Assembly (NCBI GenBank): GCA_051648645.1
Contig: JBOFFP010000003.1
Span: forward strand, 64,001-128,000
Reading direction: 5' to 3'
DNA: 64,000 nucleotides
From: Candidatus Rhabdochlamydia sp.
GTDB lineage: Bacteria > Chlamydiota > Chlamydiia > Chlamydiales > Rhabdochlamydiaceae
Positions 20,157 through 23,120 of this stretch are shown piece by piece. The position numbers and the translations under genes were made by a program. Numbering within the stretch: position 1 is the stretch's first letter; every line of letters starts with the position of its first letter. Under the pieces are notes generated by a model. That model made no database searches. It was not told the DNA's origin and was given only the letters and a program-made list of their open reading frames with translations.

Positions 20157-23120
20157 ATGCTGACTTTTGAGCAAATTATTGATCGACTTAACGCTTTTTG
20201 GGTTAAACAAAATTGCCTTATTCATCAAGGATATGATTTAGAGGCGGGAGCTGGAATATTCAATCCAGCTACCTTCCTGCGTTGTTTAGGGAAAGAACCT
20301 TATAGAGCGGCTTATGTGGAATCTTGTCGTAGGCCAAAAGATGCAAATTGTGGAAATCTCAATCGACTTCAACGCTCTCATCAATATCAAGTTTTGATTA
20401 AACCGGTACCAACGGATGCGCGTGCTTTGTATCTACACTCTCTTTTTGCATTAAATTTAGATCTTAAAAAACATGACATTCGATTTGTGCATAACGATTG
20501 GGAGGTTTCTTCATTAGGCATCTCTGGGCTGGGGTGGACGATATGGTGTGATGGAATGGAAATTACTCAGTTTACCTATTTGCAAACGGTGGGAGACATT
20601 CCTTTAAAACCCATTAGTGTAGAAGTTACCTATGATTTAGAAAAATTAGCTTTGTTCATTCAAAATAAGACTGCAATTTTTGACATACAGTACAATCATC
20701 TTTTTACTCTTCGCGATTTATTTCTACAAAATGAAACAGAGTGGAGTCATTATCATCTTACAGAAGCCTCCGTTCCTATGTGGCTGCGGCACTTTAATGA
20801 TTATGAACAAGAAATTAAAAATTTAGTAAAAAACAATCTTCCTATTCCTGCATATGATTTTGTAATTAAAGCATCGCATGCTTTTAACCTATTAGATGCC
20901 AGAGGAGCCATTTCCTTTACCGAACGAAATAGCTATATTAGAAGAATTCGCGATTTAACGCATTTAGTAGCTAAAACCATTCTTTTTAGACAAGTTTCTT
21001 TGACAACACCTTCTATAGATGCAAAGTTCCTTATACAAAACCCTTGTTTTAATCCAAAAAATACACAGGATTTTCTTCTTGAAATTGGTTCAGAACAACT
21101 CCCCTCAAGTTTTGTACCTATCGGTTGCCTATATTTGGAAAATGCCATACGCAATTTACTAGAAAACTCGGCATTAGAATTTGAAGAACTGCAAGTATTT
21201 GGAACAACCCAACGCCTAAGTATTTTAGTAAAAGGTCTAGCAGAAGGAACAGATTCCGAGGAAGAACAAATCAAAGGACCTTCAATGGCTATTGCTTTTG
21301 ATAAAAAAGGCAATTTAACAAAACAAGGCAAAGGATTTCTACAGGCATGTAATATTGCTTTTTGTACTTTAGAAGAAGTACTGCAAGAAGAAATCTCTAA
21401 CTTATATATTGTTTCCATGGGTGGAGTTAAATACTTAATTGCCACGGTTTGCACAAAAGGTAAATCTACCTATGCACTATTACAGAAAAAACTACCTTCT
21501 TTGATTATGAGCATAAATTTTCCTAAGAAAATGTACTGGGAAGATCCTTCTATTGAATACGCTCGTCCCATTCGATGGATTCTTGCTTTATTAGGAACCC
21601 AAGTAGTCTCTTTTAATATAGGTAGGATTCAGTCTGGGAACTTCTCCTTTGGCCATTTCCAATTAAGCCCTATTGCCATTGAGATCAACCATCCTAAATA
21701 CTATCTTTCCCATTTAAAAGACCATTATGTATTAGCAGATATGGAAGAGAGAAAAAAGCACATTGAAAAACAAATTAAAATATTAGAACAACAAATAAAA
21801 GGATATGCAATAGAGCAGCTCAAAGTGCTTCCCGAAATATTATACCTCACAGAATGGCCCACCTTAATGCTTGGTTCTTTTGATGTCCAATTCCTAAGAA
21901 TTCCTAAGGAAATAGTTATTTTACAAATAATAAAACACCAAAAATATTTTCCCATGATCGATCGCCATGATCAATTAATGAATGCATTTATCATTACTAT
22001 TGATAACCAGCCTAATCAAGAAATACTCTTGGGACACGAAAAAGCTCTTTTCTCCTGCTTATCTAATGGGATTGCCCTTTATGAAAAGGAGCTTTATGCT
22101 CCGCTCGAGTTGACTTATTATAAATTACAAGATGTGTGCTATCAGAAAAATTTTAAAAACCTCTGGAATAAAGTAGAGAGGCTATCTCTAATAGCAATAC
22201 TGATTCACCAATACTTAAAGATTGCAGAATATAGGCATGTACAAAGAGCCGCCCTTTTAAGCAAATCAGATCTTTGCTCCGCACTTGTTAATGAGTTCCC
22301 CGAGCTACAAGGAATTGTTGGTAAATACTACGCTCTGGCACAAAATGAAGAATCTCAAGTAGCTATAGCTCTTGAAGAACAATGGCTGCCTACATCAAAA
22401 AATGACTCCATCCCTAAAACTCCCACTGGCATAATCTTAAGCCTATCAGATAAAATTGACGACCTTATTAATTGCTATAGTCTTTCCAACGATCTCCAGC
22501 CACTACGTAAACAAGCCATTGGGATCATTCGCATTCTTCTTAAAAATAAAATTAGCTGCAATTTGAATCTTTTGTTGCTAAAAACTTGTCATTTTTTTCC
22601 CATAACAAATAAAAAAAAAGCGACACAGACAATTATAGCTTTCATCAATATTCGTAAAAAATCAGTCTTTGAGGAATTAGGTTTCAGAAAAGATGAAATT
22701 GAAGCTATTACATGGATAAGTCCCCATGATCCTTTTGATCAATTGTGCAGACTAGAAGCTTTTCATATCTTTTGCAAATCTAAAAAAAAGTTCTCTTGCT
22801 TTATTGAGATCTACAAGAGAATTAAAGGACAAATGCATAATAGCTCCTCTATCTTTCATCGAAGGCTTATTACAGAACCAGCTGAAAAAAAATTGCTCCA
22901 AGAATACACGCTAATCAGTAAAGATTGGCCTAAACTCTTAAAACAAAAAAAATACCTTGAGGCTTTTGAATTACTTATAAAATTGCAATCTCCTCTGGAA
23001 GAACTTTTTAAAACCGTAACAATCCTTACAGATAATAAGATCTTACGTGGAAATAGACTCGCTCTCTTACGAAAAATTCTTATTCTATTTGAATCTTTAA
23101 TAGATTTTAGTCACTTTTGA
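20157..23120 (+). CDS. glyQS: fused glycyl-tRNA synthetase alpha/beta subunits, strongly diverged at active-site motifs
   Basis: GYDLEAGAG.FNPATFL, GMEITQFTY, KASHAFNLLDARG, FLLEIGSE, EFPELQG, NRLALL. Confidence 0.9.
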   Translation: MLTFEQIIDRLNAFWVKQNCLIHQGYDLEAGAGIFNPATFLRCLGKEPYRAAYVESCRRPKDANCGNLNRLQRSHQYQVLIKPVPTDARALYLHSLFALNLDLKKHDIRFVHNDWEVSSLGISGLGWTIWCDGMEITQFTYLQTVGDIPLKPISVEVTYDLEKLALFIQNKTAIFDIQYNHLFTLRDLFLQNETEWSHYHLTEASVPMWLRHFNDYEQEIKNLVKNNLPIPAYDFVIKASHAFNLLDARGAISFTERNSYIRRIRDLTHLVAKTILFRQVSLTTPSIDAKFLIQNPCFNPKNTQDFLLEIGSEQLPSSFVPIGCLYLENAIRNLLENSALEFEELQVFGTTQRLSILVKGLAEGTDSEEEQIKGPSMAIAFDKKGNLTKQGKGFLQACNIAFCTLEEVLQEEISNLYIVSMGGVKYLIATVCTKGKSTYALLQKKLPSLIMSINFPKKMYWEDPSIEYARPIRWILALLGTQVVSFNIGRIQSGNFSFGHFQLSPIAIEINHPKYYLSHLKDHYVLADMEERKKHIEKQIKILEQQIKGYAIEQLKVLPEILYLTEWPTLMLGSFDVQFLRIPKEIVILQIIKHQKYFPMIDRHDQLMNAFIITIDNQPNQEILLGHEKALFSCLSNGIALYEKELYAPLELTYYKLQDVCYQKNFKNLWNKVERLSLIAILIHQYLKIAEYRHVQRAALLSKSDLCSALVNEFPELQGIVGKYYALAQNEESQVAIALEEQWLPTSKNDSIPKTPTGIILSLSDKIDDLINCYSLSNDLQPLRKQAIGIIRILLKNKISCNLNLLLLKTCHFFPITNKKKATQTIIAFINIRKKSVFEELGFRKDEIEAITWISPHDPFDQLCRLEAFHIFCKSKKKFSCFIEIYKRIKGQMHNSSSIFHRRLITEPAEKKLLQEYTLISKDWPKLLKQKKYLEAFELLIKLQSPLEELFKTVTILTDNKILRGNRLALLRKILILFESLIDFSHF

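Follow-up and report, generated by a model that had tools for sequence, protein, structure and literature searches.

A glycyl-tRNA synthetase gene with an eroded ATP site, kept intact beside an alpha2-type enzyme in a chlamydial genus

Why would a bacterium keep, whole and under selection, a synthetase gene that has lost many of its catalytic residues? The question is raised by glyQS, the fused gene that encodes both the alpha and the beta subunit of glycyl-tRNA synthetase (GlyRS), in a 64,000-nucleotide (nt) stretch of contig JBOFFP010000003.1 of Candidatus Rhabdochlamydia sp. (assembly GCA_051648645.1, here G000). This stretch is referred to as the window, and "genus" and "family" are those of G000. 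A first-pass annotation made from the letters had described the gene as full-length but with worn active-site motifs, and had supposed that a second GlyRS lies elsewhere in the genome. We find that two unrelated GlyRS genes coexist across the genus, and consider GlyQS of the genus most likely to be a catalytically disabled or severely weakened pseudo-synthetase with a non-canonical role.

The frame is open throughout, as first described. The two Pfam models of GlyRS subunits match its product from end to end and above the gathering score (PF02091, alpha, 375.1 bits; PF02092, beta, 478.7 bits), and residues 1-985 are collinear with the fused plastid GlyRS 7XJY. By these measures it is a homologue of the bacterial (alpha-beta)2 GlyRS. 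Like the canonical proteins (rice plastid 7XJY and 7LU4, E. coli GlyQ/GlyS 7EIV and 7YSE) it is full-length, with collinear alpha catalytic, alpha C-terminal, B1, B2, B3, HD and ABD domains, and it scores 559 bits to 7XJY and 542 bits to 7LU4. Functional equivalence is not supported by NCBIfam score, as TIGR00211 (beta) is the sole equivalog cut-off passed (570.1 against 300) and three are missed (NF011499, 977.7 against 1244; NF006827, 368 against 369; TIGR00388, 351.3 against 361.45). The parts of the gene that matter here are given below in window coordinates; residue roles, here and throughout, are taken from passages of PMC8464048, PMC4938167 and PMC9908026.

20157..23120, forward strand: intact fused glyQS, 987 codons and a stop, native (alpha-beta)2-type GlyRS gene of the lineage (open reading frame, profile matches, glyQS tree).
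20157..20666, forward strand: alpha catalytic domain (residues 1-170), in which 22 of 57 near-universal positions are not kept in all eight species of the genus; T33 (residue 34) is Ile, and omega (dN/dS) is 0.10 (alignment).
20331..20393, forward strand: motif 2 arginines, loop and next strand (residues 59-79; roles from PMC8464048 and PMC4938167).
20538..20540, forward strand: codon 128, the Mg2+-coordinating Glu (E. coli alpha E134), which is Thr in G000 and Lys in the seven other species (role from PMC8464048).
20619..20663, forward strand: motif 3 (residues 155-169), with E156 and T158 kept, G160 replaced by Asp in 8/8 species, and Arg163 replaced by Lys in G000 and G002.
20667..21011, forward strand: alpha C-terminal helical domain (residues 171-285), with omega 0.055-0.06 and 10 of 10 conserved positions kept.
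22044..22091, forward strand: B3 segment completing the ATP site (residues 630-645), with E. coli beta R326 replaced by Cys (residue 634) and D329 by Asn (residue 637) (roles from PMC8464048).
22476..22511, forward strand: remnant of the HD-domain loop H18-19 and start of H19 (residues 774-785), the acceptor-stem reader, six residues shorter in 8/8 species (role from PMC9908026).
23004..23060, forward strand: ABD anticodon-binding loop region (residues 950-968, FKTVTILTDNKILRGNRL), kept as in canonical relatives (role from PMC9908026).

Numbering was set by alignment to the A. aeolicus alpha subunit (5F5W). The G000 residue equals the Aquifex number plus one up to residue 66 and the Aquifex number thereafter, E. 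coli alpha numbers are Aquifex plus six, and the beta ATP-site residues carry E. coli beta numbers. Every motif change listed in the first-pass annotation is present (GAGI, ESCRRPKDANCG-NLNRLQRS, WEVSSLGISGLGWTIW, TYLQ, EVTYDLEK, EQLP and TTQRL), as is the shortening of the GSxDPYxLRR loop to SNDLQPLRK, by six residues. Two of these changes call for a refinement. EQLP in place of EELP is weak evidence, as the canonical relatives G016 and G010 also read EQL, and the Trp of GAWGLGW, although replaced (GAW to ISG), is residue 123 and not the glycine-binding Trp-115, which sits in DDWE (NDWE in G000) and is kept.

The ATP and Mg2+ machinery of (alpha-beta)2 GlyRS has been defined in E. coli, where alanine mutants of R64, D67, R76, E134, E141, R169 and beta R326 activate glycine 11- to 985-fold less (PMC8464048). 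In G000, E128 is Thr (E. coli E134), R163 is Lys (E. coli R169) and R63 is Asn (E. coli R69, G000 residue 64), while on the beta side R326 is Cys and D329 is Asn. Motif 2 has further suffered a one-residue deletion and the replacement of Y/F74 by Ser, with R58, R70, Q76 and Q78 kept. The set of residues that characterizes the ATP/Mg2+ site (alpha R58, D61, R70, E128, E135 and R163; beta R326 and D329) is thus incomplete in this protein.

The extent of the deviation was assessed in an alignment of 93 full-length fused GlyQS, made up of eight from the genus, 14 from relatives and 71 representatives, 950-1120 aa long, that a search of 1.84 billion proteins had yielded; G018 and G036, both partial, were excluded. 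At 103 positions, termed near-universal, at least 90% of the 85 non-genus rows agree. G000 is without 23 of the 103, and genus members lose 19-25 each, versus a median of 2 and a maximum of 15 in the 85 others; the deviation of G000 GlyQS is far beyond chance. Two control genera of the same family that have glyQS only (9 and 5 species, 14 sequences) have diverged in protein sequence more than twice as far as the genus, and their members lose 0-3 positions each. Besides the alpha catalytic domain, near-universal positions that are not kept in all eight species number 5/9 in B3, 3/13 in HD, 1/9 in B1 and 1/2 in ABD; the count is 0/10 in the alpha C-terminal domain and 0/3 in B2.

Some replacements are shared throughout the genus and others are not. 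Ten positions carry the same new residue in 8/8 species (G100N, D113N, P118S, A122I, F142L, G160D, E314Q, D645E, G667K and P780L), position 74 has become Ser in 8/8, and E128K (Thr in G000), T33I and beta D329N are each found in 7/8, the last position being Asn or Ser in all eight. This shared layer of changes dates to the genus stem. Other losses are specific to particular species: R63 (R, N, S, H or K) is lost in 5/8, R70C occurs in 3/8, R163K and D61N in 2/8 each, R58K and E135K in 1/8 each and beta R326C/Y in 2/8, and the motif 2 loop is hypervariable within the genus, with indels. R58, D61, R70, E128, E135, R163, beta R326 and beta D329 are invariant (100% columns) in the 85 other fused GlyQS.

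Formerly conserved positions of the alpha catalytic domain vary within the genus (16/57) about as often as ordinary ones (35/113), versus 3/57 and 46/113 in one control genus and 1/57 and 31/113 in the other. We read this variation as the signature of a lifted constraint on catalysis, and the release proposed in the first-pass annotation is borne out in that the genus has lost ATP/Mg2+ residues that are invariant elsewhere, with variation from one of its species to another. On the Pfam alpha model the genus scores 358-383 bits versus 436-489 in 16 full-length relatives, and on the beta model 466-490 versus 569-620, that is about 55-130 bits lower for alpha and about 80-155 lower for beta. Scores for leucyl-tRNA synthetase (LeuRS) of the genus (1072-1091) lie inside the range of the relatives. 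The erosion is specific to the glyQS gene and its catalytic site. Unlike canonical GlyQS, then, the protein has ATP/Mg2+ ligands that are lost or drifting, no longer has the beta contribution to the ATP site, and has a loop H18-19 that is six residues shorter.

Separately, three alpha-only GlyQ representatives among 113 examined (P0111, P0134 and P0089) also have eroded catalytic residues, for example R58S/E128R/R163W, Q76R/Q78R/E156A and T33I/E135S/E156K. These may be further relic GlyQ proteins, in which case the phenomenon would recur.

How could such losses be tolerated in an enzyme that cells need? The first-pass annotation called for a genome search for another GlyRS, possibly of the alpha2 type, and the search located one, so that glyQS is not the sole GlyRS of G000 (assembly of 1.67 Mb in 12 contigs, 93% complete and 0.24% contaminated, with one glyQS).

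G000:C6:27201-28568, contig C6: alpha2-type GlyRS, intact open reading frame of 455 aa, at 1486..2853 of locus L002 (G000:C6:25716-29366).

This protein exceeds the alpha2 equivalog cut-offs (TIGR00389, 470.8 against 243.3; NF003211, 599.5 against 312) and is unusually close to T. thermophilus GlyRS (1ATI, 633 bits over 455 aa). In the nearly closed genomes G002 and G007 both GlyRS genes lie on one contig, of 1.49 Mb and 1.88 Mb respectively; contamination is therefore excluded. The G000 tRNAGly genes comprise two identical GCC genes in tandem (G000:C3:213499-213661) and one UCC gene (G000:C10:22354-22426), all with the standard G1-C72, C2-G71, G3-C70 and U73, and among them there is no separate set for each of the two enzymes.

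Among 41 relatives, the alpha2 gene is present in 9/9 genomes of the genus and full glyQS in 8/9; the remaining one, which is 85% complete, shows a fragment of glyQS beta where a contig ends. The 32 others comprise 13 with alpha2 only, 17 with glyQS only and two incomplete genomes with neither, and the alpha2-only genomes yielded no remnant of the beta subunit. In a family sample of 129 genomes, alpha2 occurs in 42, the glyQS alpha domain in 87, both in eight (all of the genus) and neither in eight, and no genome with both types was found among the 120 family genomes outside the genus. Four genera (g10, g35, g37 and g56) contain species of either kind, which indicates that switching of GlyRS type recurs in the family.

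In the alpha2 tree the genus groups (SH-aLRT 99, a Shimodaira-Hasegawa-like branch test) with G012, G015, G017 and G019, in which alpha2 of this subtype is the only GlyRS found. The LeuRS tree places the genus in a polytomy with alpha2-only and glyQS-only genera and does not decide between one and several alpha2 gains. The alpha2 subtype differs in other families of the order, which suggests separate acquisitions. The family survey also turned up glyQS alpha domains that are split over several frames or contain stops in G063, G067 and G141. The first two are low-completeness assemblies, and the other two sampled genomes of the genus of G141 have alpha2; these copies are either decaying or assembly errors.

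Is the eroded gene simply on its way out? Between species of the genus, glyQS has a pairwise NG86 omega of 0.125 (0.10 in the alpha catalytic domain, 0.06 in the alpha C-terminal domain and 0.14 in beta) at dS of 0.25-1.22. Maximum-likelihood (ML) codon models put the whole gene at 0.136 and the three parts, in that order, at 0.099, 0.055 and 0.157; for comparison, they give 0.078 for LeuRS and 0.049 for the alpha2 GlyRS. Omega of neighbouring genes falls between 0.06 and 0.14. The control genera (g4 and g14) are saturated (dS > 2) and their omega is not comparable with that of the genus, so dN ratios by domain and counts of conserved positions were used for them instead. That the gene is kept intact, as first proposed, agrees with this purifying selection on the frame (omega 0.12-0.14).

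A slowly decaying pseudogene, not yet interrupted, would fit the eroded active site and the complete loss of the gene in relatives, and a single contig of low depth from a related strain might leave the gene out, although with an unreliable 22-nt side. The frame is nevertheless intact in eight species at the dS values given above, which contradict near-clonality of the eight sequences, and we see neither stops nor frameshifts nor an omega near 1. In a neutral simulation of the open reading frame with 0.05 substitutions per site, stops averaged 6.4 and the frame stayed open in 1/500 runs. We regard passive decay as very improbable.

The history of the gene is best seen in its tree (39 rows), where the genus comes out as a single clade (SH-aLRT 100) inside the glyQS diversity of its family, which makes the gene native and of vertical origin. 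Its genus stem measures 0.72 substitutions per site versus 0.21-0.40 for the terminal branches of its nearest relatives, G009, G010, G011, G016 and G021, and branches inside the genus are short (0.04-0.12). In the LeuRS tree (41 rows) the genus stem is 0.30 versus 0.23-0.28 for G009, G010, G016, G018 and G021. GlyQS identity of the genus to seven relatives is 0.476 versus 0.601 among those relatives, with corresponding LeuRS values of 0.681 and 0.690. For glyQS this amounts to an excess divergence of 1.31, with the largest value, 1.72, in the alpha catalytic domain; LeuRS has 1.03. The alpha C-terminal domain, at 0.516 identity to relatives versus 0.684 among relatives, is the most conserved part within the genus (0.926). 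This strong change on the stem followed by conservation suggests a new constrained state.

Such a tempo, a burst on the stem and then a return to slow evolution, could also be that of an enzyme with a remodelled pocket (T33I, E128K, G160D, F142L, D113N, A122I) that now acts on another substrate or carries out another reaction on tRNA or a small molecule. The ten universal positions fixed to the same new residue in 8/8 species speak for this idea, in that the new states are themselves conserved. The drift of the motif 2 loop and of several phosphate- and Mg-binding residues within the genus argues against any ATP-dependent chemistry under selection, and the neighbourhood of the gene holds no new domain or partner gene. 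A neofunctionalised enzyme thus appears improbable, if less so than a pseudogene.

What has been kept may say more about the present role. Residues that contact tRNAGly, as taken from E. coli work (PMC8464048, PMC9908026), are largely retained. In 8/8 species these are K146, W150 and R159 of B1, K364, R367, K394, D456, K457 and D459 of the HD cavity, R481, and the ABD loop F652...N667-R668; R531 and R585 are kept in 7/8. Changed contacts are R149Y in B1 (8/8), R482, which is Lys or Gln (Lys in G000), and loop H18-19, shorter by six residues in 8/8, which in E. coli reads the acceptor stem's first four base pairs (PMC9908026).

Loss of catalytic residues, a working-looking enzyme for the same reaction and purifying selection are together what a retained pseudoenzyme would be expected to show, and all three are found here. 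We think it probable that the native synthetase was displaced by an acquired one, was catalytically crippled and has been kept for a non-canonical role, possibly the binding of tRNAGly. The sequence of events would have begun when a Thermus-like alpha2 GlyRS became resident in this branch of the family and functionally displaced the native glyQS, which would then have been deleted in related genera and have survived in this one. A burst of substitutions on the genus stem may have dismantled the ATP/Mg2+ site (alpha E128, G160, F142 and Y/F74; beta D329), with the acceptor-stem-reading loop shortened on the same stem, and the remaining catalytic arginines and acids have subsequently drifted independently by species. 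Purifying selection has continued on the rest of the protein (alpha C-terminal domain, B1/B2, HD cavity and anticodon-binding residues). The role that would best fit the conserved parts is to bind tRNAGly (anticodon C35/C36, elbow and 3' end), and perhaps glycine, without efficient formation of the adenylate.

Several observations weigh against the displacement account. The glycine pocket is largely kept, so that the earlier description of an eroded active site should be narrowed to the ATP/Mg2+ site and the acceptor-stem loop. Of the residues that hold glycine (T33, Q76, Q78, W115 and E156; PMC4938167), four of the five (Q76, Q78, W115 and E156) are present in 8/8 species, as are T140 and T158, the threonines that exclude alanine. 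T33, which is Ile in 7/8 species, is the only pocket residue changed, so that six of these seven sites are kept in 8/8. Retention of the pocket and threonines could mean residual catalysis. G004 keeps T33, R58, D61, R63, R70, E135, R163 and beta R326, its changes among the tabulated sites being limited to E128, G160, F142, position 74 and beta D329. Several replacements are conservative (e.g., R to K), the single E134A mutation costs the E. coli enzyme no more than about 11-fold in activation (PMC8464048), and the low omega of the catalytic domain (0.10) indicates that the domain as a whole is still strongly constrained. Binding of tRNA is suggested by residue conservation, and weak residual GlyRS activity may persist, above all in G004, with most of its ATP-site residues.

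These same points, namely the glycine pocket (T33 apart) and alanine-excluding threonines kept in 8/8, the ATP-site residues of G004, the tRNA contacts, the catalytic-domain omega and, weakly, RNA contigs that cover the gene, would suit a GlyRS that still works, more feebly, as a back-up or under particular conditions (e.g., at one developmental stage) alongside the alpha2 enzyme. Such an enzyme would have to tolerate the loss, in different species, of different residues that are invariant in the 85 other GlyQS and the 14 controls (R58K, R70C, R163K, D61N, E135K and beta R326C/Y), which is not expected under selection for catalysis. E128 and beta D329 are moreover gone in 8/8 species, the acceptor-stem loop is six residues shorter in 8/8, and no other family genome was found that keeps both enzymes. 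We judge a weakened synthetase to be unlikely, though it has a better claim than a neofunctionalised enzyme.

The RNA contigs just mentioned are metatranscriptome contigs of X1 (mostly 99% or more alike) and X2 (from a relative, mostly 90-99% alike), which cover parts of glyQS and its neighbours. Such contigs are no proof of transcription and no measure of expression level, and were used as evidence neither way. One low-depth X2 contig joins 19675 to 23169, with 11 other letters between, and would skip the whole of glyQS; the joint is unreliable, with 22 nt on its shorter side.

The arrangement has partial parallels. Non-catalytic paralogues of aminoacyl-tRNA synthetases include the HisRS-like HisZ, which serves as a regulatory subunit, and the SerRS-like SLIMP of insects, which binds tRNA. 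Like these, GlyQS of the genus combines a synthetase fold and degraded catalytic residues with retention by selection in the presence of a working synthetase for the same amino acid. Unlike them, duplicates of a resident enzyme, the relic described here would be the resident enzyme itself, and the working enzyme is of an unrelated, acquired type.

Two unrelated GlyRS types in one bacterium are also known from Haloactinopolyspora alba, the only one of 542 proteomes with both according to passages of a survey (bioRxiv 10.1101/2023.05.29.542759). The coexistence described here, unlike that in H. alba, is genus-wide and involves an eroded bacterial-type copy; the survey passages are silent on erosion of either copy. 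Full-text searches of an open-access library listed no chlamydial case of an eroded glyQS next to an alpha2 GlyRS, and passages of PMC5388404 make no mention of such a pair. The title of Ju et al. (2021; PMC8464048) speaks of "cryptic prokaryote functions".

Replacement of an essential synthetase by an unrelated one is usually visible only once it is finished, and here both states coexist across the genus. The outgoing enzyme escaped both deletion and decay; it appears to have lost its ATP site and then to have entered a new conserved state. It is possible, and we put it forward tentatively, that bacterial (alpha-beta)2 GlyRS serves a second, non-catalytic function, which would explain why dead copies are retained once an alpha2 enzyme has taken over, and that the relic of the genus is a full-length sensor or escort of tRNAGly, perhaps also of glycine. 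If so, it might control how much tRNAGly is available, or how it is used, over the intracellular life cycle, with its ATP site plugged or lost. The genus thus offers a natural system in which to ask what else the X-shaped bacterial GlyRS does and which of its parts serve that role. Annotation pipelines will label glyQS of the genus glycine--tRNA ligase, when the working GlyRS is probably the alpha2 enzyme.

Around glyQS the gene order is glgA, pgsA, rlmN, glyQS, an ankyrin-repeat open reading frame, an M19 dipeptidase and dnaG, the first three being upstream of glyQS. The gene does lie between pgsA and dnaG, as the first-pass annotation had it, and is adjacent to neither.

17687..18280, reverse strand: pgsA, neighbour.
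18371..19411, reverse strand: rlmN, neighbour.
23170..23994, reverse strand: ankyrin-repeat open reading frame, directly downstream of glyQS.
25105..26889, reverse strand: dnaG, neighbour.

The ankyrin-repeat frame has no counterpart in the glyQS flanks of the seven other genus genomes and is probably a strain-specific insertion. A contig of RNA run X8 also stops matching inside this frame.

Elsewhere in the window, prs (ribose-phosphate pyrophosphokinase; 14145..15083, reverse strand) is one frame interrupted by a single in-frame TAA at 14517-14519, with the N-terminal domain in an open reading frame at 14517..15068 and the C-terminal part in frame at 14145..14516; the interruption reflects either a pseudogene or a sequencing error. 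A 201-aa frame at 12262..12867 (reverse strand) contains Ribosomal_S6 (residues 12-109) and Ribosomal_S18 (residues 145-195) domains and looks like an rpsF-rpsR fusion. Two M24 (methionine-aminopeptidase-like) genes lie in tandem at 3041..3925 and 3909..4742 (forward strand), the first with an N-terminal SEC-C motif.

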